Assembly: GCA_963756875.1 (NCBI GenBank)
Contig: CAVWPA010000003.1
Location: 576,001-640,000 of the forward strand
From: an uncultured Verrucomicrobiae bacterium
Lineage (GTDB): Bacteria; Verrucomicrobiota; Verrucomicrobiia; Chthoniobacterales; UBA10450
Direction: 5' to 3'
Length of the DNA stretch: 64,000 nt
The first letter of the stretch is position 1, and every line of letters begins with the position of its first letter. Below the pieces are notes generated by a model. It did no database searches and was not told the origin of the DNA. It saw only the letters and a list, made by a program, of their open reading frames with translations. This document shows, piece after piece, positions 2,064 to 52,640 of the stretch. A program made the position numbers and the translations under genes.

Positions 2064-4481
2064 ATGATGACTGATCTTCGTTTCGCTCTTCGCCAATTAT
2101 TTAAATCGCCCGGGTTTACTTTGCTGGCGTTGATCACGCTGGCTTTGGGCATCGGGCTGAACACCGCCATCTTCAGCCTGATCAACGATCTGTTCCTAAA
2201 GGGCCTGCCTTTTAAGGAGCCGTCCCGGGTTTTGCACCTTTACTGCGGAGTGAAAGGCCAGGAACCGCTGAATTATCCGATCTCGGCGCCCCGCTTTCTG
2301 CATTATCGCGAAGGTCAGACAATTTTTTCGGGCATCGCCGCGGAGAGATTCTCCACGTTTACGCTCACGGGAGTGGGTGAGCCGGTCCAGTTCTTTGGCA
2401 GAAAAGTAACATCCAACTATTTTGACGTGCTCGGTGTTCGGCCCATTCACGGCCGCAATTTTCTGCCGAAGGAAGAAGAAACGGCTGACGTGGCGCTCGT
2501 GTCGGAGAATTTCTGGCAGAAACAACTGGGCGGCGATCCGAATGTCATCGGCCGCAGCATCACCCTGGATGGAGTGGCGCACACGATTGTCGGCGTTCTG
2601 CCGAACATGCCGGCCGCCTGGTTTGGGCCGAACGCACAAATCTGGACGACGAAACCGATGGAGATTCCCGGATTTTCCCACGAACGAATGATGCGCGGGA
2701 CCGGTTTTCTGCGGGTAATCGGCCGACTGAAACCCGGCGTGACTCTGCAGCAGGCGCGCGCGGCATTGCCTTCACTCGAACAGAGTTATCGTGCCGAGAA
2801 TCCCGGCAAGATAGACAGTCTCTTCGTCACCGTAGTGAAAACGTTGCCGGAGGATGTGAGCGGCGATTTGCGGCCGGCCTTTACAACACTGCTTGCCGCG
2901 GTGGCTTTCGTGTTGCTCATCGCGTGCAGCAACGTTGCCAATTTGTTGCTGGTTCGTTTCAGCGGCCGGCGCCGCGAGATCGCGTTGCGCATGGCGCTGG
3001 GCGCGTCGCGCGCGAGCGTTCTCCGGCTCTTCATTTTCGAAAGTCTGCTGGTAAGCGTGGCGGCGGGCGTCGTAGGTGCTTTGCTGGCGTGGCGGTTGGT
3101 GCCGCTCGTTCCGAAAATGGCGGCGAACTTTCTCCCGCTCGAGCCCACGAACGGTGCGGGACTTTCGATCCCGGTGCTTGGATTCACCGTTGCGCTTTCG
3201 CTGCTTACAGGATTGCTCATGGGAATTTATCCCGCGTGGCAAAGCTCGCGCGCCGATCTGGTGGAGGGCCTCAAGGAAGGCGGTCGCGGAACCAGCGGCA
3301 GCCTTCGTCAGCAACGCTTTCGGAAAGTTCTGGTCGGCGCGCAGGTCGCGCTCTCGGTCACATTAGTCGCAGGCGCGGCCCTGCTGATTACCAGTTTTGT
3401 GCAATTGAGCCGGCAGAATATTGGCTTCAACCCCGAAAACCTCTGGGTGGGCGGCATCACGCTGCGTCAGGCTCAATACCCGGATGTTGCCACCCGCGCG
3501 CGATTTATCGACAGGACCCTGGCCGCGTTGCACGCCGTTCCCGGGATCGAAAGCGCGTCGCTCAGCTCCGACATTCCTTTGAACGGCGGAAGCCTGGTCT
3601 TTTACGCGCGTGCCGACCGTGAAGTTTTGCCCGTGGAGAAGCGTGCAGCGGCTCCCGGACATGAAGTTTCGCTGGGATATTTTCGCAACTGGGGGATTCC
3701 CATTTTATCCGGACGCGACTTCAACAAACATGATACTGCCGATGTGCAGAAAGTGGTGCTGATTAGTCAGGCAGGCGCGCGAAAAGTTTTTGGCAACGAA
3801 AATCCAATCGGCCACACGCTTTTGCTGACGAGCGACGGTGTGCCGGCGCAAATTATTGGCATTGTGGGAGACGTGCGCGGGCAGCGAGTGGCCCAACCGA
3901 CAGACATGGAATTTTACCGGTCGCTGGCGCAGGCCAATTTCCCATTCTTCAGTATCGCGGTCCGCAGCAGACTCAAACCGGAACCGGTGACCAAGCTTGT
4001 GCAATCGGCGCTGGCCCCGATCGATCCCGGGCTTGCCATCGCCCAACCGCAAGCGATGGACACGATCGTCGCCCAGGCGCTGGGCCAGGCGCGATTGATG
4101 ATGTGGTTGCTTGGGATCTTTGCGGGCGTTGCTTTGTTGCTGGCCACGGTGGGGATTTACGGCGCGGTTGCTTACACGGTTGAGCAGCGCACCGGGGAAA
4201 TCGGCGTGCGTATGGCGCTCGGCGCGCAGACCGCCGACATCCTGCGATTAATCGTAAACCAGGGGATGCGACCTGTCGTTTTTGGTCTGGTCGCCGGTTT
4301 AGCAGCGGCGCTTGCGCTGGGACGGTTGATTGCTTCGCAGCTTTATCAAACTTCGACGCACAGTCCGACACTGCTTTCGGCCACGCTCGTCATTCTCGGT
4401 GCGGCGGCGTTGGCCGCCTGTCTGATTCCTGCGAAGCGCGCAACGCTTGTCAATCCTGTCGAAGCGTTGCGGGCGGAATAG
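2064..4481 (+). CDS. ABC transporter permease, duplicated MacB/FtsX type (ADOP-like)
   Basis: DLRFALRQLFKSPGFT...LALGIG N-terminus; two MacB-PCD/FtsX halves (ACSNVANLLL..RRREIALRMALGA; EIGVRMALGA); ends NPVEALRAE. Confidence 0.92.
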   Translation: MMTDLRFALRQLFKSPGFTLLALITLALGIGLNTAIFSLINDLFLKGLPFKEPSRVLHLYCGVKGQEPLNYPISAPRFLHYREGQTIFSGIAAERFSTFTLTGVGEPVQFFGRKVTSNYFDVLGVRPIHGRNFLPKEEETADVALVSENFWQKQLGGDPNVIGRSITLDGVAHTIVGVLPNMPAAWFGPNAQIWTTKPMEIPGFSHERMMRGTGFLRVIGRLKPGVTLQQARAALPSLEQSYRAENPGKIDSLFVTVVKTLPEDVSGDLRPAFTTLLAAVAFVLLIACSNVANLLLVRFSGRRREIALRMALGASRASVLRLFIFESLLVSVAAGVVGALLAWRLVPLVPKMAANFLPLEPTNGAGLSIPVLGFTVALSLLTGLLMGIYPAWQSSRADLVEGLKEGGRGTSGSLRQQRFRKVLVGAQVALSVTLVAGAALLITSFVQLSRQNIGFNPENLWVGGITLRQAQYPDVATRARFIDRTLAALHAVPGIESASLSSDIPLNGGSLVFYARADREVLPVEKRAAAPGHEVSLGYFRNWGIPILSGRDFNKHDTADVQKVVLISQAGARKVFGNENPIGHTLLLTSDGVPAQIIGIVGDVRGQRVAQPTDMEFYRSLAQANFPFFSIAVRSRLKPEPVTKLVQSALAPIDPGLAIAQPQAMDTIVAQALGQARLMMWLLGIFAGVALLLATVGIYGAVAYTVEQRTGEIGVRMALGAQTADILRLIVNQGMRPVVFGLVAGLAAALALGRLIASQLYQTSTHSPTLLSATLVILGAAALAACLIPAKRATLVNPVEALRAE

Positions 4482-6359: not shown

Positions 6360-7780
6360 ACTGTGGAGGCGGCCTCGCGTGCCGGCTGGCGGCAAGTCCA
6401 AACACTTCGCTGGGCGACACCTTCGCCGCGCACAGGGCAGAAATGAATCCGGCGATCGAAGAAGGCCGGCATCGTGTTTCGCACGAGAACCATCTGACAT
6501 GGCTCGCCTTCGGAGCCGCTGCGCCGGCGATTGTCGTCGTCCTTATCATTCTTTGGTTTGGGGATTACAGCGCCAAGGTGCAATGGACGCTGACCCTTCT
6601 CATTATCGGCTCCTTTGTGGGATTCATCGCCAGCGCTCGCGAACGTCTCGTTCGTCCGCTGCAAACAATGACGAATCTCCTGGCGGCGCTGCGGGAAGGA
6701 GACTATTCGATCCGCGCGCGCGGCGCGCGAGACAACGATGCTCTTGGCGAGGCGCTCCTTGAAATCAATTTGTTAGGCGAAACGCTGCGCGTGCAGCGAC
6801 TTGGCGCATTCGAAGCGACCGCGCTGCTTCGCACGATCATGGCGGAGATCGACGTGGCAGTATTTACCTTCGATCCCGACCGGCGCCTGCGCTTGGTGAA
6901 TCGCGCCGGCGAACATTTGCTCGGGCATCCCATGGACAAACTGCTCGGCCGCAACGCAGACCAGCTGGGACTCGCGATTTGCCTGGATTCGAACGAAGAC
7001 GCGCCGCTCACGTTGAATTTTCCCGGCGCGTCCGGGCGGTGGGGTGTTCGACGAAGCACTTTTCGCGAACACGGCTTGCCGCATGAGTTGCTGGTGCTCA
7101 CCGATCTCAGCCGCACCTTGCGCGAAGAAGAACGCAGCGCGTGGCAGCGGCTCGTTCGCGTGCTCGGACACGAAATGAACAACTCGCTGGCGCCGATCAA
7201 ATCGATCGCTGCCAGCCTGGAGACACTTCTTCAACGTCAACCGCCGCCGGTCGACTGGCAGGACGATGCGCGCAGCGGCTTGAAGTCGATTGCTGCGAGA
7301 GCAGGCGCGCTGAGCCGTTTTATGGAAGCGTACGCCAGGCTGGCGCGTTTGCCCCCGCCGCAAAAAGAAGACATCGATCTTGGAGAACTCGTTCGGCGGG
7401 TGGTGAATCTGGAGCCGCGTTTGCGAGTGAATGTTTTACCGGGTCCGGAAGCAAGAATCAGCGCCGATGCTGCTCAGATCGAGCAGGCATTGATCAATCT
7501 CGTGCACAACGCGGTCGATGCGTCACTGGAAACTGGCGGCAAAGTTTCGATGGGCTGGCGCGCGAACGGAGACTGCGTGGAAGTTTTTATCGACGACGAG
7601 GGTCATGGAATCATGAACCCGACCAATTTGTTCGTTCCGTTTTTCACAACCAAACCGGAAGGGTCCGGCATCGGTCTGGCGCTCAGCCGCCAGATTGCGG
7701 AAGCGCACGGCGGTTCGCTCAGCGTCAGCAACCGCCTCAATCGCGCCGGAGCGGAAGCGCTGCTTCGGATTCCTCGTTAG
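6356..7780 (+). CDS. Membrane sensor histidine kinase (NtrY-like, PAS-HisKA-HATPase)
   Basis: Two TMs, H-box VLGHEMNNSLAPI, N-box NLVHNAVDA, DEGHGI, FFTTKPEGSGIGL. ATGA overlap with the regulator; alternative start ATG 6443. Confidence 0.92.
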   Translation: MNCGGGLACRLAASPNTSLGDTFAAHRAEMNPAIEEGRHRVSHENHLTWLAFGAAAPAIVVVLIILWFGDYSAKVQWTLTLLIIGSFVGFIASARERLVRPLQTMTNLLAALREGDYSIRARGARDNDALGEALLEINLLGETLRVQRLGAFEATALLRTIMAEIDVAVFTFDPDRRLRLVNRAGEHLLGHPMDKLLGRNADQLGLAICLDSNEDAPLTLNFPGASGRWGVRRSTFREHGLPHELLVLTDLSRTLREEERSAWQRLVRVLGHEMNNSLAPIKSIAASLETLLQRQPPPVDWQDDARSGLKSIAARAGALSRFMEAYARLARLPPPQKEDIDLGELVRRVVNLEPRLRVNVLPGPEARISADAAQIEQALINLVHNAVDASLETGGKVSMGWRANGDCVEVFIDDEGHGIMNPTNLFVPFFTTKPEGSGIGLALSRQIAEAHGGSLSVSNRLNRAGAEALLRIPR

Positions 7781-7824
7781 AGCAAAAATAGGAGACGCTC
7801 TGCGCAACGAGCGCCTCTAGAACA

Positions 7825-7862
7825 GTCCCAAAAGCGGGACGAAGGAGTCCCGCAACTGGAGC
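7825..7862. promoter_or_regulatory. Tandem enhancer (UAS) sites for a sigma-54 activator, copy 2
   Basis: Perfect inverted repeat GTCCC-N6-GGGAC (7825) and GTCCC-N6-GGAGC (7847), 22 bp apart. Confidence 0.7.
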
Positions 7863-7938
7863 AGTTTTTCTAACATCGTTTTTTTGATCATGTTGTAAAC
7901 TGCTTATGTTCAATTATTTGTGACTTTGTTTTGTGCGG

Positions 7939-34839: not shown

Positions 34840-35042
34840 CTACCCGAGCGCTCCCGCTTGAACTCGTGTTCATCCGGCCGCCATTTGGACTGCGACCCCG
34901 AACAATGTCAAGACCTCCGACGGAACGTGTCGACTGGTAAGCTCACTCGATCCTCGATTCCGTAGAGGGCGTGGCTCAAAGTTGAGGGTTGTCGTTTTTT
35001 TTGCCATTAGTCGCCGAGAGCTGTCTTGACTGTAATTATCAC

Positions 35043-35082
35043 TTGATATGTGAACGCTGTTTAGTATAATGAACAGCGTTTA
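35043..35082 (+). promoter_or_regulatory. Sigma-70-type promoter overlapped by a TetR operator
   Basis: TTGATA-N16-TATAAT; inverted repeat AACGCTGTT-N10-AACAGCGTT straddles the -10 box just before the TetR ATG. Confidence 0.75.
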
Positions 35083-35705
35083 TGAAAGCGAGAGCGAGAC
35101 GACAACGTTACCGGCAGGAGATGCGCTCTGAAATCCTGAACGCAGCCCGGGAAATCTTCGTGCGGAGTGGCCTCGAAGGATTTTCCATGCGAACCCTCGC
35201 CCGCTCCGTCGGCTATTCGCCCGCCGCGATTTATCTGCACTTTAAGAGCAAAGAAGAGCTCTTCGACATCCTGGTCGAGGAAAGCTTCGTCTCATTGTAC
35301 GATGCGCTTGGTATCTTGCTAAAAGAACGAGGCAAGGATCCGGTGCGGCAATTGAAGCGCGGGTTGCGGCTCTATGTGGAATGGGGATTGAAACAACCCA
35401 GCGCCTACCAAATCGCTTTCATCATCCGAAATCCTGCGAAGAAGCCGTACCGGACTCATCGCGCATTCGATCTTGCCCGCGCCCTGGTGAAACTTTGCCT
35501 GGGCAGATCCAAGGCAGCCGAGCACGAATTGGAATTGCGTACCCAGGCGCTGTGGGCCGCCACGCACGGCATCACCTCTCTTCTCATACAGAGATCCTCT
35601 TTTCCCTGGGTCTCGAAGCAACGCCTGATCGATCAGGTAATCGACAGCGCCGTGCAAGGGGCAATCGCTCCAATGAAGCGACGAAAATTAAACGGGAAAA
35701 ATTAG
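35082..35705 (+). CDS. TetR/AcrR family transcriptional regulator
   Basis: ILNAAREIF..SMRTLARSVGYSPAAIYLHFKSKEEL; WHG-like C-domain LWAATHGITSL. Confidence 0.93.
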   Translation: MKARARRQRYRQEMRSEILNAAREIFVRSGLEGFSMRTLARSVGYSPAAIYLHFKSKEELFDILVEESFVSLYDALGILLKERGKDPVRQLKRGLRLYVEWGLKQPSAYQIAFIIRNPAKKPYRTHRAFDLARALVKLCLGRSKAAEHELELRTQALWAATHGITSLLIQRSSFPWVSKQRLIDQVIDSAVQGAIAPMKRRKLNGKN

Positions 35706-35715
35706 GAGGGCACCT

Positions 35716-37239
35716 ATGCAAACAAAATTCGAAACCCCTGCAAAAAAATCCGAGGCAGCGCGAGCTGGATCCTGGATTCCTTTAGTTGTCGCGATTGTTC
35801 TTCTGCCATTTGCCAACGGAGCAAACGCCATCGCGCTGGCCGCATGGTTGGCGCCGCTCTTTTTGCTGCGATTTGCTCGAAGGCAGAGGATCATTGTCGG
35901 TATTCCCTTTGTTCTGGCCGTGCAAGTTGCCGCGCTCGCGTTCCAGTATCGCGGAATGGTGCCGTTTCCGACGGCTCTCTACGTGGCCGTGATGGTCTTT
36001 TATGGGCTGTGTTTCACTCTGCCCTATCTGGGCGACCGTCTCCTGGCGCGCCGGCTCTCCGTCTTTTCGGGCACGCTCGTTTTCCCGCTGATCTGGACAA
36101 CAATAGAATATCTCCTGTCTTTTGGACCGTTCGGAAGCTGGTTTGCGACGGCCTATTCGCAGTACGGTAACCTGGCACTGCTCCAAATGCTTTCGGTCAC
36201 CGGCCTCTGGGGTGTCACATTCCTGATCGGATGGACGGCCGCGACGGGAAATGCGTTGTGGGAAGAGTGGGCCACTGCGCGACGCGTCCCGCGGGTTGCG
36301 ATATGGTGCGCTTTGCTTGTCATCATCACGATGCTCGCGGGTGGTGCGCGTCTTGCCCTCTTCCCACCTGGAGGAGAAACCGTCCGGGTGGCCACCCTTT
36401 CACGGATCGAGGGCAAATTGCATCCTGATCCGAAAGTCGTCGGGCGCATGTTCCACCACGAACCACTCACCCCTGAAGAAATTGCGACGATTCGGCAAAA
36501 CTCCGCTGCGATTGACAACGACTTGTTGAAGCGAAGCGAGGGCGAAGCAAAAGCTGGGGCCCGCATCATTTTCTGGGGTGAGGCGAATGCACCGGTGCTG
36601 AAGGAGGATGAGAACGATCTGATCCGGCGTGGCGGGATCCTGGCGAAGCGCGATGGCGTGTATCTCGGAATAACGCTTGCCAGCTGGCATCTGGAAACAA
36701 CGCCGTCTCTCGAAAACAAGATCGTTCTCATTCAACCCGATGGCAGTCCTGCTTGGGAATTTTTTAAAGCCCATCCGGTGCCAGGTGGGGAAGCGGCGAT
36801 CTCCATTCGGGGCGATGGAAAGTTACGCGCACTTGATACTCCCTACGGGCGGCTGAGTTCGGTAATCTGTTTCGACGCCGATTTTCCTCAGCTCCTCGGA
36901 CAGGCGGGACGACTGGGAACCGACATAATGCTCGATCCGTCTAACGATTGGAAAGCGATCGACCCGTGGCATACGAGGATGGCTAGTTTTCGAGCAATCG
37001 AACAGGGGTTCAACCTCGTCCGGCACACGAGCCAGGGTCTCTCTGCCGCTTTCGACTACCAAGGTCGACAGCTGGCATCGATGGATCACTACCACACCAC
37101 CGATCACGTCCTCGTAGCACAGGTTCCAACTCGCGGAACGCGGACTCTCTACGCGCTGATTGGAGACTGGTTTGCCTGGGCTTGCCTGGTTGGGCTAACA
37201 GGTCTGGTCATCTTGGGAGCAAAAAATCGCGCTCTCTGA
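35716..37239 (+). CDS. Apolipoprotein N-acyltransferase (Lnt)-like membrane carbon-nitrogen hydrolase
   Basis: N-terminal TMs, SVTGLWGVTFL, nitrilase triad E (WGEA), K (FKAHPVP), C (ICFDADF), FRAIEQG; AGGAGG RBS. Confidence 0.85.
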   Translation: MQTKFETPAKKSEAARAGSWIPLVVAIVLLPFANGANAIALAAWLAPLFLLRFARRQRIIVGIPFVLAVQVAALAFQYRGMVPFPTALYVAVMVFYGLCFTLPYLGDRLLARRLSVFSGTLVFPLIWTTIEYLLSFGPFGSWFATAYSQYGNLALLQMLSVTGLWGVTFLIGWTAATGNALWEEWATARRVPRVAIWCALLVIITMLAGGARLALFPPGGETVRVATLSRIEGKLHPDPKVVGRMFHHEPLTPEEIATIRQNSAAIDNDLLKRSEGEAKAGARIIFWGEANAPVLKEDENDLIRRGGILAKRDGVYLGITLASWHLETTPSLENKIVLIQPDGSPAWEFFKAHPVPGGEAAISIRGDGKLRALDTPYGRLSSVICFDADFPQLLGQAGRLGTDIMLDPSNDWKAIDPWHTRMASFRAIEQGFNLVRHTSQGLSAAFDYQGRQLASMDHYHTTDHVLVAQVPTRGTRTLYALIGDWFAWACLVGLTGLVILGAKNRAL

Positions 37240-37309
37240 CCTCCGACCGCTGACCTCTGCTTCCGCTCGCCACCTCATGCAATGTCAACCCGCTTTTGGT
37301 TCCAAGCCG

Positions 37310-38333
37310 TTAGACCACGACTTGCGCGTCGGAGGCTTGAAAGGTGGATGAAGGAACGTGCGAGTTGCAGTGGGTCACAATTCCGCACCATTTCATCGCG
37401 CAAATGATCCAATAAGGAAGTGTCTACCTCCCACCACCGCAGACCACTACGCGCGAGACGCGGATAATTGTGATGATTTTCGTGCCATTCACCGGCGAGG
37501 AGTCCGTAAAAGATTTGATTCACCGGATGTCCGTGTTTGCCGGTGGCGCCATGCATCGCGCTGTGACCGCGGTAATTAAAATCACGCAGGAGAAACACAC
37601 AGAAAAACACGCCCGAAATCCACGCCCATACTCCCCACCATCCGGCCACGGCGAAGGCAAGCCCGCCCCAGAATAAATGCGCGAACACGGCGCGAGCGAG
37701 ATAGATCCAGACGTTTTCGATCGAACCCGTGCGTCGATATTGTTCGTGCGAACTGCTGATGATCCCGATGTGTCCAAGGCTTTTCGCCAGCCGGTCAAAC
37801 TCGGCCGCGGTGAGGTTGCGATTTGTTTTCTGTTGCGTTTCGGTCGCGAGATAACTGCCGAGCCATCCGAGGTGCGGCCCGTACGGATCGCCCGGATCAT
37901 CCGGTTTCGCGTGATGAAGTCGATGAGGGATCACGTAGCTCTCCTCGCGAAAAGGAATCGGGTTCGTCCACAGGAAAAATCGCGCGCACCAGATGCTGCG
38001 GAACTTGAATGCCTGATGCGAACAGAAGCGGTGAAACCAAAGCGTATTGTAAATGGTTCCGACGAAGCTCGAGATCAGCAGGACCGCAGCGATGGAAGCG
38101 ATGGAAAAATGAGAAATAATTAGAAACCAGACAAACACCCCGAAACTCGCCAGGTGATAAAGCAGGTAGAGCGCGGGAATCAGGCGCGTTCGATCTTTCC
38201 AAAAACTGATCGCATCGAGCAACTCAGCCAGCACCTGCCGGGTCGTGGGCGTTTTGGGTGCCGGGCCTGGATGCCCGTAGGTCGGTTCGTCCAGGATCGC
38301 CTGTCGGTAAGTGGGATGTGCGTTCTCGCTCAA
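37310..38333 (-). CDS. Membrane fatty acid (acyl-CoA) desaturase; probable +1 frameshift at ~37421
   Basis: His boxes HRFCSH, HRLHH, HENHH. Removing one base after WWEVD gives DLPYWIICAMKWCG..., with a stop at 37310. Confidence 0.82.
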
Positions 38334-38847
38334 GATCGGGCCGCGTCAGCTAATAATAGACCACGTATGGAATGCGGTGGCCAGCCTCACCGGGGCTGCA
38401 GATGCTTCGTCGCTTACGGGATCAGCGTTGAGTAAAGAACGGCGAAACCTCCGTCCTCTGACCTCGCTCCCTGCTCCCTGCTCCGTGCTCCCGCCCGCCG
38501 CCCCCAGCAATGTCAGGCGGTTCGCAGGGTGCGAACTTTACGGCAGCGTTGGCAAGGAGCCAACTTTACGGCTGGACGGGGACGTGCTGGGGAGGGAGGC
38601 CGGGCACCGAATTGGGGAATTGCGGGAGGCCGCGAGCATTGTTTGCGAGCCGGTCTAGGGAAGCCGGCGACGCGGTTTGGGAAACCGAGCCGCTCTCTGT
38701 CCTCCGACCTCCTTGGGATCGAATGAAATGGGGTCGTGTCCCTCCTTCGCTTCCGGCACCTTTTTTGCTCGATTTTCCGCTGTAAAAAGCGCTGACACGG
38801 TCTACAAATTGCCTATACTATTAATGAGACATGTCGAATAAACAGTT

Positions 38848-39576
38848 TTGGACGAAAACAAACGCAGCCGTGCTAAAGGCAGTCCGATTATCGAAAGGAA
38901 AGGGCGACAGCGCTCTCCGACGGGACTGGAAATTGAAGCAGGTTTCGAGAAGTGGATCGCATTCGCACGTCAGCATCTCGGACGTTCGTACTCTTGGGAC
39001 GGGCCTTTCACGAACGATCTCGACCGAGTAAACGCCATCGATACTGAAACGGCGTTACTCCTCAAGATAGCGCCAGACTGGAGCGCGGAGGCATTCTACT
39101 CAGCTTGCACGGCGGCCAATCCCGACGTGACGAAAGGGTCGGAGCATTATGTAACGCGCTATCAAGACGGACTGTCTCCGCGCGTAGTGAAAGCTTCCAT
39201 CCCAGGGAAGTATGGGCGGCACGAGTATTCTCCGAGTCTGTACCTAAACTCTTGGCGACTGTTTCAACGATTCTTGCCGGCACTTGCGATTCGCGTCCAT
39301 GGCGTCCTCGTGCAGCCGGTAGCAGGGAAAGATACACCGTTGCCAAGCGTAGTCACCAGCATGCAGTACATCGAGGGCGGTCATCCGAAACCCCAGCAGA
39401 TTGCGGCGTACATGAAATCCCGCGGGTGGTTGGAATACACCGACCAAAGTGAAACGCAAGATTACGTTCAGAGACAGTCGCGTCAGATCATAAGGGATGC
39501 GCACCCGGGCAACTGGATTAAGCAGCGCGGAACTGCTGAGTTGATGCCAGTCGACATCAGCATCGAGCAGTTTTGA
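38848..39576 (+). CDS. Stand-alone kinase resembling the polyvalent-protein kinase family (Kinase-PolyVal-like)
   Basis: G.EH.V (GSEHYV), [19 protein letters not shown], catalytic-like RDAHPGN, PVD; start (TTG) uncertain. Confidence 0.65.
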
Positions 39577-39596
39577 GGCTCAATGTCCACCACGTC

Positions 39597-39708
<112 letters not shown>

Positions 39709-39789
39709 CTTCCGTCCATTCGTCAGCGGAGACTTGTCAAGATTTGTTGACTGACCCCAATTCCAATTCATTTCGCTCCCATTCGGCAT

Positions 39790-41374
39790 CTAAAGCCCAG
39801 CAGAACTGACGTAATCGATCGCGAACTTTGTATCGGACGCCCGATTGATCCACTGCAAGACGCTTTCGTATCTCCGCAATTTTGGCCGGCCAGTACCGCA
39901 GTGGTACGCGGGGCAAACACACTGTAGCGGTGACAGCCCCTGTAACAGAATTGACGGCAATTCCCTCGAGAACGCCGGCTCGAGGAAATTCAGAGCACGT
40001 AATGTCGCGCCGGTCATCTTGTAACGCGTCAGTAAACATCAGGGTCGCCGCGTAGGGCAACTGTTCAAACGGGATAGATGGGATGCCGTTGCTGCACAGG
40101 GTGTCGCGCGTGTGTTGATCGTGAAACATCATACTCAGTGCGGCGATGATGCATGCCTTGAGTGAAATCTCTGGATCATAAAGCTCGTGCTTGGCTGCTC
40201 TGTCGCGGCGACACCGAGTGATGAGATACAGGCCAGAAATCAAACTATGACCACACCGCCGGCCGTCAAAATATGCTCTTCGGAGCGCAGGGTCGAAACT
40301 AGCGACCACATCATCACCAAAGCCGGCCGGTCGCCACGCGTCGCTGACCCGCGTGAAAAGCTTGACCAAGTCTTCTCTCGCCTCGAGGAACTCGGTGTGC
40401 CACGCGTTGTTAATCGCGTTGAGAACTATGGATGGAACGTCATTTGACTGGTCGCTTCTGTTCTGGCTGCCGATGCTAAAAGCGAAAGTGCGCCAAAAAT
40501 CTTCACCCATGTAACCTGGGTCGTGGAACATGCACGTCAACGACCACAAGCTCTCCCACAAATGCAGCTTAGAAATCCGTTTTGGATCAGCAATATAGCG
40601 GTCGGGCAGTTCGGTTCGGGCTCGATGCTCGAGCATGCCGCCGAGCACTAGGAATCCGTTGAGTAGATTGTTGAAAGTGTGGAAAAAATGATCTCGTGCG
40701 CCTTCGTTTGCGCCAGCACGTTCCCAATCTTGAAGAGTCTGAAACAAGCCGATAGGAAAGAACAAGCGGCGATCTCCGCTTCGGATCTCCCTGGCGAGCG
40801 TGATTAGCAGATCAGATTCATCGTCGTAGGAAGGTAGAGACCGCAGTAGCGGAGTGTAGCGACGGTCTAACAGCTCAAATCGGCGCATTAAATAGGGGCT
40901 GAATCCCCGAACGTTTAACAATGCCTTACGCGTTGCCGCAGGGATGTGGCCACGTTCCAAAGCACCCCGCCGTAACTTGGGCATCGCGTAATCCGGCGGC
41001 CAAACGCGAAGCAGACCCTCCGAGGTCTCGAGAAGCAGTCCGAAGCCGAGCTTGTAACATTCCTCTGCGACCGCTTCCGCGATGTCGGTTGCGGAGACTT
41101 CGGGTGAATCCGTCGCGACGATTACTGCCGAAATCCGTTTCGCCGCTGTGAGTTGCTTGTGCGCACTCCGAACCCAATCAGGAATGCGCGGGAGACCCAG
41201 TGCATAAACAAGGTGATAGTGTCGGCCGTCCGCCAAACAAAGGTCTGGGCCGAAGCTCAATTTTTTCTTTAGCAGCCGCTTTTTATTGATCTCCCCAAAC
41301 GAAATCTCGCGAAGAACCCTGTCGCGACGCAAAGCGGCCTTTATTCCTTGCGCTGTAGCGCGAGTAAATCGCAT
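39790..41374 (-). CDS. HD-domain phosphohydrolase with N-terminal possible degenerate restriction-endonuclease-like domain; probable +1 frameshift at ~39871
   Basis: [35 protein letters not shown] give an H..H / HD / H / H / D metal-ligand pattern. Frame-corrected end is [27 protein letters not shown] (uncorrected ORF ends at 39737). Confidence 0.7.
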
Positions 41375-41383
41375 GAAATCGAT

Positions 41384-42457
41384 TTAGAAGGTTTCTCGCG
41401 AAGCGCGCGCTGCCCGAATGAGCTCGTCTAAGGCCCGGCGAAACTTATCAATCATCTTCTTCTTGGCCGCCGACGAGCCCTTGGCTTCGGTAATGTATCT
41501 CGACTCGTATTGGTCGAGGGTACGCGTAAGCGCGACAATCGCTGCTATGACGCGCTGTGGTTTTGCTGGGCGCTCTTCCAGAAGCTCTGGTAACTGGGTC
41601 GTAATTTCCGCCTTAGCGTCTTCGAATTGAAAATCCTTTCTATTAACCAAATCTTTGAAAAGATTGAGCGCGGTCTTCTTCTTCGAGCCGTCCAGCGCTC
41701 GAGAGAACAGCGGCGACACGCTACGTATCTGTTCTCTACTAGTGAGTGTGCCGGTCTCTATTCCGCCAATAGTCTTGTCCAACGGTACTCGCCGCACCTG
41801 ATTCGCAGTTGTGTCGACGGCCTTGTTGCCATTGAAGTAGTTTGGGAAGGCTTCGACTGCAGGCTCGATAATACTCGCCTCTATGGCCAAGATGTACGAA
41901 TAAACATTCCGCGATGGCTCGCGTTCATCGAAACGAAAGATTTCATCCTTCAATTGCTTCGGCCAGGAGAGCACGTGTACTTTATCTTTTGCCGTAACCA
42001 GTGACATGTTCGTCTCTTCCGCGAGCTTGGCTGCCCATTCCGCTTTTTGTGCAAGCCTGAGGCCTCTATCAAGCTCGGGATAGGCTTCCACGAGCGAACG
42101 ACACTGCGCCATCGGCCCCCACTGCTCGCGGGTCATATGCAGATGAAACATTAGCTTGCGAACATCCGCCGTTACTCCACGCCCCTCCAGAATGTGAACA
42201 GGCACCATGTCCAACGCTAGCTCGCGAGCTGCCCAATACCGTCTCTCCCCATCAACCAGCTCATATTTGATCTCACCAGCTGTCCTGGACAGATCGCGAA
42301 TAACCAAAGGGACGAGGATGCCAACACGATTGATCGAGGCAACGAGTCGCTCGAAACTTTCGTTCCGGTCAATCGCCCCCCTAGGATTGTGGTCGCTAGG
42401 CCTGATTTCTTTCAGGCGGATGCGTTTTACGCGACTTGCGAATTGAGAAGTATCCAT
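41384..42457 (-). CDS. ParB/Srx N-terminal domain protein with HTH and long C-terminal region
   Basis: IRPSDHNPR, LVASINRVGILVPLVI, YELVDGERRYWAA (ParB Arg patch), HTH-like AAKLAEETNMSLVTAKDKV. Confidence 0.85.
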   Translation of the reverse strand: MDTSQFASRVKRIRLKEIRPSDHNPRGAIDRNESFERLVASINRVGILVPLVIRDLSRTAGEIKYELVDGERRYWAARELALDMVPVHILEGRGVTADVRKLMFHLHMTREQWGPMAQCRSLVEAYPELDRGLRLAQKAEWAAKLAEETNMSLVTAKDKVHVLSWPKQLKDEIFRFDEREPSRNVYSYILAIEASIIEPAVEAFPNYFNGNKAVDTTANQVRRVPLDKTIGGIETGTLTSREQIRSVSPLFSRALDGSKKKTALNLFKDLVNRKDFQFEDAKAEITTQLPELLEERPAKPQRVIAAIVALTRTLDQYESRYITEAKGSSAAKKKMIDKFRRALDELIRAARASRETF

Positions 42458-42463
42458 AAGCAG

Positions 42464-43606
42464 TTACCGCTTCGTTGTCATAATCAGGATAGTTTCTGAA
42501 GTGCTGCCTCGGCACGCGCGCCTTACTCGGCGTGCAGTGGGAATTGTGTCCTTGTAGGTTGCACGCACCTGGTATCCACCGATCTCATTCACCGCGATTT
42601 GAGCGAGCGCATGTGCCAAGGGCTCCCCATAGGCAGTGCTCAATACGTCACCGACCACCAACACGCATCGTCCTCCGGGTTTCAAAATTTGCCGCCACAG
42701 AGTCAAACACTTGCGCATGAGCTCGAAAAACTGTGTTTCGGTGGGAGAGACCTGTGCATCAAGTTCGTCTGGATCGTCGACACCGAGAAACCAGAGGCGC
42801 ATGCGATTGTCGCGGCCGTAGTCGAGCTGGCGCATATACGGCGGACTAGTGATTATCGCGTCGACCGGATCCGCGGGGCGAAATAGCTCTGCGTTCCTCA
42901 AAAAGCATTGCCGCTGGATCGAAAAGTCCACGTTTGGGATGCGTTTGAGCGCACGCCCCACCTTCGCTTCGAGACGGCCTGCAACCGCGCGGTACCGATA
43001 CAACTCGGGGAATACGTCGACCGGAAAGCGACTGAGTCGCAAGTAGGGAACAGCGTGACTGCTTGGAAACGACAGAAAACCCGGCCTCTGATGATGCAGA
43101 ATACCGAGAAGGCACGCTAACAAGAATCGTTCGCTGCGCCGCGCTAGCACGGCGCGCCAAGCGAGAATCTCTTGCAATGTTTTCCGATGGAAAAACGCAC
43201 GTATCCATTTCGGCACTACAGATAAATCAATCGATGGCATCGTCCGCACGGCGGCTTCGGCGGCACGCTGCAAACGGTGCAACGCGTCGTCTTGCGAAAT
43301 CAATGGGAAGAGTTTTGCGCGAGTGAGAAGGGATGCGTATGGACTTAGATCATTTGCGATGACGTTGCGGCCGGCAATCCAAGACTCCAACGCGATGGTT
43401 CCGCAACCAGCGAATGGATCGTAGACGCAGTTTCCCGCTCTGGTGCAATGGCGAACGAGAGCATTCGCCATCGTTGATTTAATCTTTCCTATGTATGGCG
43501 ACAACTGGTGGAGAGTCGTCTCCTGATGCACTGCGCTCCCGGCCCAGTCGCAAGTCACACCATTCAGTCGCAGATGGCTATTCCGATTCATGACTACGGC
43601 GGACAT
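42464..43606 (-). CDS. Amino-DNA methyltransferase, alpha-type motif order, probably N4-cytosine
   Basis: LHQLSPYIGK (motif X-like), VYDPFAGCGT (motif I), then a target-recognition region, then IITSPPY (motif IV) and ILKPGG..VLVVGD. Confidence 0.88.
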   Translation of the reverse strand: MSAVVMNRNSHLRLNGVTCDWAGSAVHQETTLHQLSPYIGKIKSTMANALVRHCTRAGNCVYDPFAGCGTIALESWIAGRNVIANDLSPYASLLTRAKLFPLISQDDALHRLQRAAEAAVRTMPSIDLSVVPKWIRAFFHRKTLQEILAWRAVLARRSERFLLACLLGILHHQRPGFLSFPSSHAVPYLRLSRFPVDVFPELYRYRAVAGRLEAKVGRALKRIPNVDFSIQRQCFLRNAELFRPADPVDAIITSPPYMRQLDYGRDNRMRLWFLGVDDPDELDAQVSPTETQFFELMRKCLTLWRQILKPGGRCVLVVGDVLSTAYGEPLAHALAQIAVNEIGGYQVRATYKDTIPTARRVRRACRGSTSETILIMTTKR

Positions 43607-43908
43607 CCCGGCACAGTATCAACGCGAGATAGATTCGTCGACTTCTTAAAGAAAACGGGGTCAGACAATTGGGGTTCAGGCAACAAATCTTGACACCGTG
43701 GGTTCCTGAAGCTTAGCACTCTATCGGCCGCTCACTGATTCACCTTGTCCCCGACAATCATCCGGAGAGCTTCTGGATTTGGCTGACGGAAGCGGCTCCA
43801 GTAAGGATCCAAGGAGCGATCGCCAGAATCTTATCTGATTTTTCCAAATTGTGTTTGGCGCAGCCGCCTTCGTTCAGACTACGGCCAGCCAGGGAGCAAT
43901 CGCGGGGA

Positions 43909-45898
43909 TCAAATCTGGGGAATTCCGAGTCCTCTAAGATAATTGAATGTCGAATCATAAAAAGTAGGGGATCGCGTCGGATCAGCGACTTCGCCAGGCG
44001 GCACGAACACGACCATTCCTTGGCGCGCACGTGTAAGCAAGACGCGGTAAGCATTGCGGAGATACACCCGGTTGTCGGCATTCGCGATGTTGCACCAACG
44101 ATCCCCTCGGAAATCGTGATAATTCCAGTCCGCACCGTTAAAGCGAAAGTCACCGCACCACGCGACGCAGACCCAATCAAGTTCCAATCCTTGCACTTGA
44201 AATTCAGTCGCAGCGTCTTCGAGATAATAACTCGACCGCGTGTCGTCTCTGCCATTCAAAAAATAGTGTACCGGGTCAACTGAGACGCGGATGTCGATTG
44301 CGTGCGGCTTCAGTCGCATCGCTTTTGATGAGGCGACCAAGCCGTAGCGCTCCGTTCCTCGCGCGCGATCGCGAACCCATTGTTTCGCCGCATTCAGATC
44401 ACGCGTGATTGCGATCGGATATCTCGCGGCCAATTCTCCGAATGCGCGCTTCGCCTGTTCTTCGTCGCAATCGAGAAGCGCTTTGACGAATGCAGAAACA
44501 TTTTCCGCGCGAAACGATCGCATGGAGACTGCGAGATGCAGCGCGTCGTCGAACTTGGTGCGCGGACGCTCGCGCACGATCTCCAGGCGCTCGACCGGTC
44601 GCATACTCGCTGTCTGTGAGCCGTGACGAAATGAACATCTCCCATGCAGGAAAACTTCGATTCACTGCTTGGAGCCACGCATCAATACCCGGCTTCACCT
44701 GTATTAATCTCCTGGCCGCCACCAACAAGGCATACGATTACCGCCCAATCCTTGTGTCTATCCATGTATGAGATCAGAAACTCTGGCTCCGAATGAGAGA
44801 ACCCAGCGGCCGTTTCTTCGCGCAGCATGAAGTTGGCGGTCTGCCTAAGATTCCAAGCGCGTTGCGCCTCATCGAAAATAACAACGTGCTCATCCGGCGG
44901 ACCGAGATCGATCAGCGCATCGTCGCGGAAATGGTGAACGTTTTGAATAAACGACTTGATCGCGTTCTCCAACTTTTCCTTTTCGCGCCTTCTCGCCGTG
45001 TTGCTTCCGACGCGCGACTTCGTCACGCGTTAGCGCTTCACGAAGAACGGCAACCAATGGGCCATTGCCAGACAGAAAAACAGCATGAGTTGGCTCGATC
45101 CTCTTCACGCCGCGTCGCAAGATTCAGCCCGACTAAAGTTTTTCCTGCTCCGGGCACGCCAGTCATAAACAAATTCGCTTTAGCGCCCTTTAGCATGAGC
45201 TTCATCGACGAGTTCTTCAATTCGTCGCGAGGTAACGTGCAGATTCTGCGCGCCGGCGTCGAACCGCGCGATCGCTTCGACCGAATGTGCGCATACAGCG
45301 CGCGCGCAGCTTCGATGATCGTGGGCGTCGGATGATACGACGCTCGCGACCACGCTTCTGCATTCGACGGCGATGCCACTAATTCTCGCTAAGCGCAGCG
45401 TCGAGCGCGCTGCGAAAGTGTTCGGGATCGACGACAATCGGCCGGTAAAGTTTGTCGGCGTCTGGCATCAACTCGATCTGAGGACATTCGTTGCTTCTGT
45501 TGGGTCAGAATGGGAATGATTGAAGCATCGTGACTTGCCTCATGAAAATTCTTTAGGTCCAGCCCGTAATCCCAAACCTGATCGATCGCCGCACGATCAA
45601 ACGTTTTCTCGCCGACTTTGAATTCGATTGCGAAGACCACTGGCCCAATCACAAGAACGACGTCGATCCGCCGTCCCATTCGCGGAATGTTGAACTCGAA
45701 GAAGATCGAACCCGCAAAGGCCAATGAGTTGCGGGCGAAGAAACTCGATCTGCGCGAGCCACGCGTCAGCGTTGCGTTGGAATCAAAGTCGAACTCGCAG
45801 AATTAGTTGTAAGCTGGCCCAGACAATTTCGGGGGTCGCGTGGAGCAAAGTCTGCAGTCGAAGCGCCGTACCAGAATCGCAAGAGACGAAGACCGCAT
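43909..45898 (-). pseudogene. DUF2075 / Schlafen group 3-like nuclease-helicase carrying many single-base indels (pseudogene or poor consensus)
   Basis: Colinear fragments across frames: [12 protein letters not shown] (PD-(D/E)xK-like), [56 protein letters not shown]. Confidence 0.8.
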
Positions 45899-51584: not shown

Positions 51585-52640
51585 TCAGCGACCGTATTTC
51601 TGGACCAGGTGGTCGATGTAGGCGCTGTATTTCTCGGCGAGCGGGGCGCTTTCGATGAAGAGAATGTTCTCGGCGTTGAATTCGGCGCTCCGGGAGAAGT
51701 TATAGGAGCCGGTGATCACGGTGTCGTCGATTATCAGAACTTTGTTGTGCATGAAATCGTGGTGCCCGGTCGGCGTGTACGGGGTCGAGTTTTTTCCAAC
51801 CAGGCCCGCGCGCGTGATGATCTCTTTTAACGCGCCGATCTTCCAACGGTTCGACGGCACTTCCTGCCACTGCGGGTACACCTCGGCCATTTGCGTGCGA
51901 TCGTAGATCCCATCAATCGTGACCCGGCCCGCGCGCAACAAATTAAGCAGCCCGCCGATGAGCGTGCCGGAGTTGATTAACAAGCTACAGATGCGGACAC
52001 GATGCTGTGCCGCCCGAACGCGTTTCGAGATTTCGGTATCGATTTCGTACCCGCAGCCCGGCGAAAACATGACGCGCGTTTCGGCCGGTTGACCGGAATA
52101 GATCAGCGACACGGGCTCGGTATGAATCTGGCCGGTGTTATCGAAGTTTTCTTTTTCCCAAAGCTCTTCGAACTCTTCCGCGTAGTAACCGGCCAGCGGC
52201 GCTGAATCGATCTCGACGATGTTGTTCTCCATCAGAGTAAATGCGTCGTCGGTCATGTTGGTCGAGCCGGTCCAGATCGATTGGCGATCGCGCAGGATGA
52301 ATTTGCTGTGCATCAGTTTCATGCCGGCAATGGGACGCGAGGGATAGCCCAACGATTGGACAAAGGCGCTGGTGCCGGACGGGGCCGGGTCCTGACCGCC
52401 GGCGACATTTGGTTGAATCGGTTTGTCGCCGTCGTAGCAGAAACGGATCCGCACGCCGGCGTCCGCGCGTTCGCGCAACGCGGAGCTTAACGATGTTTTC
52501 AACGGATCGCTGAACCGCATGTCGTAAACGGCAATATCGAGAGATTCTTTCGCGGCGCGTATAAACGCGGTCAGCCGCGCCATGATGGCGTCGGCGGATT
52601 GTTCGCCCTGAGCGAGAAAGAAAACCGAAAGAGTATCCAC
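51585..52640 (-). CDS. Phospholipase D superfamily protein (two HKD motifs)
   Basis: MHSKFILRD..WTGSTN and MHNKVLIID..TGSYN..NAEN. Confidence 0.9.
   Translation of the reverse strand: MDTLSVFFLAQGEQSADAIMARLTAFIRAAKESLDIAVYDMRFSDPLKTSLSSALRERADAGVRIRFCYDGDKPIQPNVAGGQDPAPSGTSAFVQSLGYPSRPIAGMKLMHSKFILRDRQSIWTGSTNMTDDAFTLMENNIVEIDSAPLAGYYAEEFEELWEKENFDNTGQIHTEPVSLIYSGQPAETRVMFSPGCGYEIDTEISKRVRAAQHRVRICSLLINSGTLIGGLLNLLRAGRVTIDGIYDRTQMAEVYPQWQEVPSNRWKIGALKEIITRAGLVGKNSTPYTPTGHHDFMHNKVLIIDDTVITGSYNFSRSAEFNAENILFIESAPLAEKYSAYIDHLVQKYGR

Follow-up and report, generated by a model that had tools for sequence, protein, structure and literature searches.

A candidate restriction-modification-like cassette in which a ParB-like protein and an HD-type protein accompany a DNA methyltransferase

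Organization of the cassette

We analysed a 64,000-nucleotide stretch of DNA (hereafter the window) from an uncultured Verrucomicrobiae bacterium (contig CAVWPA010000003.1). Its minus strand carries a 3.8-kb cassette of three genes, which according to the open reading frame (ORF) listing encode a DNA methyltransferase (P0001; 43606–42464, 380 residues), a ParB-like protein (P0002; 42457–41384, 357 residues), and a protein with an HD-type metal-ligand set (P0003; 41374–39737 as written, 545 residues). The intergenic gaps are 6 bp between the methylase and ParB genes (42458–42463) and 9 bp between the ParB and HD genes (41375–41383), and the ORF coordinates confirm the tight, co-oriented arrangement described in an earlier note made from this DNA. 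We hold, with a little more belief than doubt, that the cassette is an undescribed restriction-modification-like defence carried as one horizontally mobile operon.

The HD gene of the window contains a single extra base near position 39871 (local sequence gcg gag a tac gaa). The ORF as written leaves the family alignment after residue 501 and ends with 44 unrelated, out-of-frame residues in place of the last 26. The original 3' end lies in the other minus-strand frame (39870–39790, stop codon 39792–39790), which encodes 26 residues, 21 of them identical to the C-terminus of P0004, a protein of 527 residues that is 83% identical overall to P0003. The earlier note gave a protein of ~530 residues ending at 39790; this holds for the repaired reading through the insertion (527 residues) and not for the ORF as written, which runs on to 39737.

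DNA methyltransferase

P0001 scores 47.9 bits (E 2.1e-12) with the methylase family model PF01555, whose cut-off is 26.7. Motif I (DPFAGCGT, residues 63–70) stands ~180 residues ahead of motif IV (TSPPY, residues 252–256), an order that we take to be the alpha order. The SPPY motif is usually assigned to N4-cytosine enzymes. Together with the PF01555 match, the two motifs agree with the alpha-order amino-methyltransferase proposed earlier. The matches in PADLOC are generic MTase_II models, the best of which is PDLC03325 (9.1e-25). The public gene call (P0263) starts five codons later and comprises 375 residues. The methylase, probably of the N4-cytosine or N6-adenine type, would mark host DNA.

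ParB-like protein

P0002 is composed of an N-terminal ParB/Srx nucleotide-binding domain, a middle part that is helical, and a helical hairpin at the C-terminus. The N-terminal domain matches ParB_N (PF02195, 5.5e-14) and contains the sequences NPRG at residues 24–27 (box I) and GERR at residues 70–73 (box II). An alignment with Bacillus subtilis Spo0J (6sdk_A, 2.3e-08) includes both NPR and GERR. In 39 members of the ParB family, residues N24, R26, D69, G70, R72, R73, F104, H107, and W113 are invariant. The invariance of the NPR and GERR pocket residues indicates that the nucleotide pocket is under selection.

In partition ParBs, ENLQRE-type box III residues serve the hydrolysis of cytidine triphosphate (CTP). 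The ParB of the window reads MFHLHMTREQW where Spo0J has ENLQRE, and the replacement extends across the whole family (consensus MFHxHMxRxxW, also given as MFHIHMxRxQW). The helical middle part aligns with the DNA-binding regions of ParBs and the overall layout is ParB-like, which lends partial support to the helix-turn-helix claimed for this protein. In the 24 ORFs scanned from 24 to 58 kb of the window, and in 84 neighbour ORFs of the 13 other loci described below (Pfam), no ParA-type family is found. Therefore, the view of P0002 as a ParB/Srx protein with an intact GERR and no ParA partner stands.

The sole PADLOC match of P0002 is to a ParB-methylase fusion model (PDLC03229, MTase_II), whose N-terminus is matched by residues 1–91 (1.2e-05). 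In addition, P0002 matches phrog_498, named 'DNA methyltransferase' (7.8e-09).

HD protein

P0003 has no family match in Pfam (2025), NCBIfam (2026), or PHROG, and none in Pfam at E ≤ 1. When PDB chain sequences are searched with the single sequence and with a 92-sequence profile, the best row has an E of 1.2. A search of 5.8 billion proteins yields 120 homologues; where a protein name is given it is 'hypothetical protein', and the few entries with an organism name belong to Acidobacteriota lineages. No longer, fused form of P0003 is found among longer proteins, in a search that is weak. The ESM Atlas gave unnamed clusters and one lead (0.77), to a viral HD cluster, which is too weak for use.

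In the alignment of 92 sequences, residues H143, E218, R227, D228, H229, H232, H284, D285, H376, H418, D419, D449, Q452, R455, R456, and a few others are invariant. These residues include the metal-ligand-type set H229/H232, H284-D285, H376, H418-D419, and D449, which upholds in 92 homologues the H..H/HD/H/H/D set first read from the window.

The AlphaFold2 model of P0003 has a pLDDT of 90.5 and a pTM of 0.90, with only the frameshifted tail below 50. In the predicted structure, residues 1–130 adopt a restriction-endonuclease fold (VIA-align scores: PaqCI 7.9, SdaI 7.4, NucS 6.9, AF1548 6.8), residues ~145–520 form an all-helical domain of the HD/phosphodiesterase (PDE) superfamily, and there is a C-terminal beta subdomain. 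A second comparison, with Foldseek's top 993 chains, agrees, and the HD part best matches PPX/GppA domains (PPX 11.8; PDEs 9–10, over 215–235 residues). Foldseek itself gives no match to P0003 in the PDB at E ≤ 0.001, and the fold matches come from VIA-align alone.

Within residues 1–135, only P43, P65, A99, and L113 are near-invariant, apart from M1, and position 44 is D, T, E, S, or N. No acidic or lysine residue is conserved in the N-terminal domain, indicating that conserved PD-(D/E)xK catalytic residues are absent. The model and the alignment thus bear out the idea that the first ~125 residues are endonuclease-like and lack (D/E)xK. This domain is, on the predicted structure, most likely a non-catalytic module that binds or reads DNA.

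Conservation and distribution

When 185,579 species were scanned, each represented by one genome, 13 loci besides the window were identified. The trio that the earlier note proposed as one system occurs in the same order in 11 of the 13 (tblastn), in Acidobacteriota, Verrucomicrobiota, and Bacteroidota, which rules out a chance adjacency of three genes. Locus L013 has the ParB and HD genes with a non-orthologous PF01555 methylase upstream (1.5e-30), and L003 is a truncated remnant of the cassette. In other loci, the ParB ORF overlaps the HD ORF or directly adjoins it. When all ORFs are clustered against each other, the three cassette families alone are widely common, and the next cluster of real genes occurs in 3 loci; clusters that rank in between consist of antisense ORFs inside the three genes. 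The cassette is flanked by different housekeeping genes in each genome (Pfam). The nearest relative of the window genome is L001, and the ORF clustering reveals neighbour genes in common with L004. Judged by gene order and sequence, the three genes are supported as a conserved, self-contained unit.

The trees of the HD and ParB proteins have the same topology for the 11 intact loci (L003, L010, and L011 are left out as broken). One Bacteroidota row stands amid Verrucomicrobiota rows. L013 is sister to L005 in both trees, indicating that the methylase was exchanged between close relatives. The HD family is not found in 60 relatives of the window genome (36 of the same family and 24 of the same order) or in 400 sampled genomes of the phylum. 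Neither the 72,556 plasmid records nor the 50,697 phage records searched contain a match, and none of 35 pattern matches on viral contigs encodes a relative of the HD protein. The alternative that the trio is a prophage or plasmid module thus finds no match in the plasmid, phage, and viral collections searched. The cassette is rare, patchy, and, by all appearances, horizontally mobile.

In L010, a DDE-type and a Mutator-type transposase are inserted (2782–3867 and 6518–7879), one between the methylase and ParB genes and the other inside the HD gene. The HD gene is damaged in the window (frameshift), in L010 (transposase), and in L011 (split), and the methylase is whole in each, as would fit an effector that is costly and has a methylase to guard it.

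Distant subfamily and exchange of partners

A profile search of 1.84 billion representatives returns 496 proteins at E ≤ 0.001, among them a second tier of ~500-residue proteins that keep the invariant H/H/HD/H/H/D/R set. A metagenome scan with this distant subfamily yields 80 loci. In 67 of these, the gene immediately upstream of HD encodes a ParB of the same family; most of the others lack sequence on that side. Up to three genes away from HD, a ~367-residue protein (cluster c2) is present in 53 of the 80 loci. A PF01555 methylase is present in 10, and is located upstream of ParB in some and downstream of HD in others; L015–L017 have the latter order, ParB-HD-methylase. The partner is a Dam-type PF02086 methylase in L021. 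ParB occurs alone in 12 loci, and neither ParB nor a partner occurs in 6.

The c2 proteins carry the motif RGCxRxCxFC (CxxxCxxC). Weak matches to B12-binding and Radical_SAM families are found in 9 of the 13 members scanned, all under the Pfam cut-offs, and weak matches to B12-radical-SAM families in NCBIfam. For the member at L036:7461–8561, there is a match to phrog_9298 ('radical SAM domain protein', 2.4e-31). Since c2 matches a phage family, phages may carry the same modifier, possibly as a counter-measure.

The partners seen are the window-type methylase, the L013 methylase, the PF01555 and Dam-type methylases of the distant subfamily, and the radical-SAM-like protein. The ParB-HD pairing is kept while the third gene varies; therefore, the ParB-HD pair is the constant core and the S-adenosylmethionine (SAM)-dependent enzyme is exchangeable.

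Three metagenome contigs show other arrangements. At L092:1–4342, two ParB-HD pairs stand in tandem. At L051:8387–12394 and L078:9141–11833, longer relatives of c2 (535 and 397 residues) are encoded on the opposite strand. Both have DpdB-like ParB proteins as neighbours, and the one in L051 also has a PbeC/DndD-like ATPase and a GHKL ATPase. L051 and L078 look like a second kind of ParB-linked radical-SAM cassette.

Defence context

To describe the neighbourhood of the distant subfamily, we took ORFs that have at least 150 residues and lie no more than five ORFs from the HD gene, excluded core clusters and identical duplicates, and scanned 146 of the 171 that were eligible. At 1e-8, 20 of the 146 match PADLOC models. 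The matches comprise parts of Type I, IIG, and III restriction-modification (R-M) systems, three REase_II, HNH, Cas1, CARF, two TIR, PbeC/DndD, two DpdB, MzaA, PDC-S02/S35/S60, and RT-protease; two of the 20 are generic. In the control, which consists of the window flanks and seven distant stretches of genome G000 (127 of 135 ORFs scanned), 8 of 127 match, all of them generic (sigma-54 AAA, ABC ATPases, two SAM methylases, a cyclase, and a weak phospholipase D (PLD) match). The difference has a Fisher p of 0.048 on raw counts and of 1.5e-4 for 18 versus 1 specific matches, where 'specific' is our own judgement. Among the 13 close loci, R-M-type neighbours are found in L005, L012, and L013 (Pfam). 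A defence neighbourhood is thus suggested for the distant subfamily, with specific matches that the control does not have, while the close loci lie mostly amid housekeeping genes.

No named system in PADLOC-DB 2.0.0 (2023) is covered by all three proteins. The database has no model for P0003, whose sole match is BrxA (E 0.0015 over 84 residues). In the literature searched, which lies outside subscription journals and supplements, no ParB-HD-methylase or ParB-HD-radical-SAM cassette is described; the available portions of PMC12839542, PMC10853773, bioRxiv 2026.10.19.760177, PMC11529989, PMC9519451, and PMC13229309 likewise describe none. Within this database and literature, the statement that the trio matches no named system is upheld. 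PD-lambda-5 is called a compact RM+Abi (restriction-modification plus abortive infection) system, and ParB is not mentioned in the available portion of its description (PMC9519451); we did not adopt it as the home of the cassette.

Relation to known systems

The cassette resembles Type III and Type I R-M systems in that a methyltransferase is encoded with a DNA-tracking component dependent on nucleoside triphosphate (NTP) and a nuclease-fold protein, and self DNA is presumably methyl-protected here as well. In Type III enzymes, Mod supplies sequence recognition, as the cassette methylase could, and the enzymes switch to sliding on DNA after ATP hydrolysis. Unlike these systems, the cassette has no superfamily 2 helicase/translocase and no active PD-(D/E)xK site. 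Its NTP-binding part has the ParB/Srx fold, its catalytic part is an HD domain, and the modification enzyme in relatives can be radical-SAM-like.

GmrSD, BrxU, and SspE, which join a DUF262 ParB-fold NTPase to a DUF1524 HNH nuclease, also couple a ParB/Srx-fold nucleotide module to a nuclease for defence; in the available portion of PMC12839542, GmrSD is described as a ParB plus HNH architecture. However, each of these is one polypeptide, attacks modified DNA, and lacks a cognate methylase, whereas the cassette divides the two functions between two proteins, with HD instead of HNH and a canonical ParB_N that carries GERR, and has a methylase linked to them. Their PADLOC models match neither P0002 nor P0003 at E ≤ 1.

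The ParB-methyltransferase fusions of phages and plasmids contain the same two families, ParB_N and PF01555. Those are fused orphan methylases of mobile elements, whereas the cassette genes are separate and the constant partner of ParB is the HD protein. ParB-type activators (DpdB and the partners of phage thymine dioxygenases) are likewise ParBs without ParA beside a DNA-acting enzyme, as far as the available portions of PMC13229309 and PMC12839542 describe them; there, the partner is TGT or a dioxygenase, in contrast to HD and a methylase. For the dioxygenase partners, mutations of the NTP pocket are reported to have no effect (PMC13229309, available portion), whereas the pocket residues of the cassette ParB are invariant across the 39 sequences.

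Compared with partition ParBs (ParABS), the cassette ParB has boxes I and II and lacks both the ENLQRE box III and an adjacent ParA. P0003 belongs, at the sequence level, to none of the known HD enzymes considered (YhaM, Cas3 HD, SAMHD1/dGTPases, HD-GYP, class I PDEs, PPX/GppA), and its N-terminal dead nuclease fold and C-terminal beta subdomain are unique to the family. Cas3 is absent from the match lists of P0003, which excludes nothing.

Proposed mechanism

We propose that the ParB-like and HD proteins would form a constant effector module beside the methylase. ParB would bind nucleotide through its NPR/GERR pocket and load on DNA as a clamp or switch. The dead restriction-nuclease-fold domain of the HD protein would hold or read the DNA, and the putative binuclear-type HD centre would then attack and hydrolyse DNA that is unmarked. 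By analogy, the ParB-type clamp would replace the helicase-like motor of Type III-like enzymes. The ParB-like and HD proteins may bind each other, as gene adjacency and congruent trees suggest. A constant ParB-HD pair combined with interchangeable SAM-dependent enzymes fits the logic of a mark plus an effector.

A bolder form of this proposal, which we put forward tentatively and consider doubtful, is that ParB-HD forms the heart of a restriction machine of a new class, in which a nucleotide-gated clamp would deliver an HD nuclease, anchored by the dead restriction-nuclease fold, to unmarked DNA and the enzymes that make the self mark would be interchangeable, being mostly cobalamin-type radical-SAM proteins in the distant relatives. 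Such a partner would imply a DNA modification made by radical chemistry, which is not yet described.

Several observations weigh against a restriction-modification-like defence. The Pfam HD model (PF01966) does not match P0003 at E ≤ 1, and matches just 2 of 40 distant relatives, at 17–19 bits, under the 22-bit cut-off. No ParB-HD or methylase-ParB-HD fusion occurs among longer proteins, which is weak evidence. The 13 close loci lie mostly amid housekeeping genes, with R-M-type neighbours in 3 of 13, and the enrichment around the distant subfamily is rough and suggestive, because the control is one genome (G000) instead of the same metagenomes and the loci are partly related. ParB could serve the methylase instead of the HD protein, because ParB-like proteins activate DNA-modifying enzymes (PMC13229309, available portion). 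Finally, the HD gene of the window is frameshifted, so nothing may be active there.

Surroundings and state of the window copy

Upstream of the methylase gene, a DUF2075/Schlafen-group-3-type helicase gene lies on the minus strand in three reading frames (43912–45388). The three pieces match PF09848 at profile positions 136–353 (4.5e-41), 54–132 (4.4e-16), and 1–29 (3.9e-05). The helicase family is absent from the ORF clusters common to cassette loci, indicating that it is not conserved with the cassette. The broken helicase is either a pseudogene or a product of assembly indels.

Directly downstream of the HD gene is a tandem heptamer array, ACTTTCT x16 (39597–39708, no strand; score 175, 89% matches), with no evident function. 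Between LNT and the cassette (37275–39576) are two ORFs without a clear family, one of 352 residues on the minus strand and one of 242 residues on the plus strand, the latter matching Kinase-PolyVal weakly (E 0.001). TetR and LNT (35037–37233) are the only genes in synteny with two genomes of the same family. Since the synteny ends at 37233, the two ORFs may be part of the same acquired island. Delimiting the island by synteny was dropped, as no far boundary came to light within 20 kb. The G+C content is 0.52–0.56 at 39–47 kb, below most 1-kb bins of the flanks (range 0.52–0.61). A scan of 39300–44300 for sigma-70-type promoters finds 0 sites versus 2.9 expected, which is uninformative for this organism. 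Further away, at 51585–52640 on the minus strand, is a two-domain PLD-family protein with a weak match to the PADLOC DrmC model (1.7e-09), probably a housekeeping phospholipase-D-type enzyme outside the island.

These features raise a serious possibility, to which we give somewhat less than even weight, that the window copy is a dead remnant in a decaying island, with no present function save perhaps that of an orphan methylase. The one-base insertion near 39871, the helicase in three frames, the lower G+C content, and the end of synteny are all consistent with it. However, the frameshift affects only the last 26 of 527 residues, and the invariant and catalytic-set residues are all upstream of it. 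In addition, the source genome is a three-contig assembly of the long-read kind, in which an indel error could make such a frameshift; no sequencing runs holding the HD gene are listed. The insertion may be real decay or an assembly indel error. The split helicase beside the cassette favours real decay of the island, without proving it, and the window copy may be damaged or inactive, with the methylase and ParB intact. In any case, this possibility concerns the state of one copy, not the nature of the family.

Alternative functions

For the family, the defence reading with an HD nuclease competes first with abortive infection by nucleotide depletion, which we consider unlikely. Here, the HD protein would be a phosphohydrolase of (d)NTPs or signal nucleotides, switched on when ParB senses foreign or unmethylated DNA, and would starve phage replication. 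The best fold matches of the HD part are consistent with this, being PPX/GppA domains of enzymes that act on phosphate chains and ppGpp precursors, and the conserved operon and defence-type neighbours fit equally. However, a depletion effector needs neither a linked methylase nor a DNA-binding nuclease-fold domain, both of which are constant features, and the swapping of modification enzymes better fits the marking of self and non-self DNA.

Modification without restriction also seems improbable to us, and ranks below depletion. ParB would load or activate the SAM-dependent enzyme, be it a methylase or a radical-SAM protein, on double-stranded DNA, and the HD protein would process an intermediate or recycle a by-product, so that the cassette would serve epigenetic marking or protection from other restriction systems. 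ParB homologues activate phage thymine dioxygenases on double-stranded DNA (PMC13229309, available portion), and the Dpd modification system includes a ParB-like ATPase, DpdB (PMC12839542, available portion). The existence of ParB-methylase fusions, to one of whose models (PDLC03229) the first 91 residues of P0002 align, also favours it, as do the c2-like radical-SAM proteins beside DpdB-like and PbeC-like genes in L051 and L078 and the phrog_9298 match of the radical-SAM partner. On the other hand, an ordinary amino-methyltransferase needs no helpers, and the partner that stays with ParB throughout is HD, not the methylase. No other part of the cassette is as large or as conserved as the HD protein, which has a full catalytic set and is repeatedly broken, as a costly effector would be. 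Moreover, its family is not found in the phage or viral collections searched.

A module for the maintenance of mobile elements, in which ParB would partition or silence an integrated element or a plasmid and the orphan methylase and an unrelated HD protein would be cargo, is very improbable: it is suggested by the ParB_N domain with intact GERR, the ParB-like architecture, the patchy distribution, and the transposases inside L010, and is contradicted by the lack of ParA, integrase, relaxase, or replication genes among the Pfam-scanned neighbours, by the lack of matches in the plasmid and phage records, by the different housekeeping genes around the cassette in each genome, and by the family-wide replacement of the partition-type box III residues.

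Implications

The small size of the cassette (3.8 kb) makes heterologous tests easy. The HD-protein family, with 496 cluster representatives in 1.8 billion proteins, is without annotation and could now be named. If the proposed restriction-modification-like defence is correct, the ParB-HD pair would be a new effector pair for modification-linked defences, combining a ParB-type nucleotide switch with an HD enzyme in immunity. The constant pair with its swappable partners would then be a clean handle for finding DNA modifications not known so far. The CTP-clamp fold would gain a biological role outside chromosome segregation.

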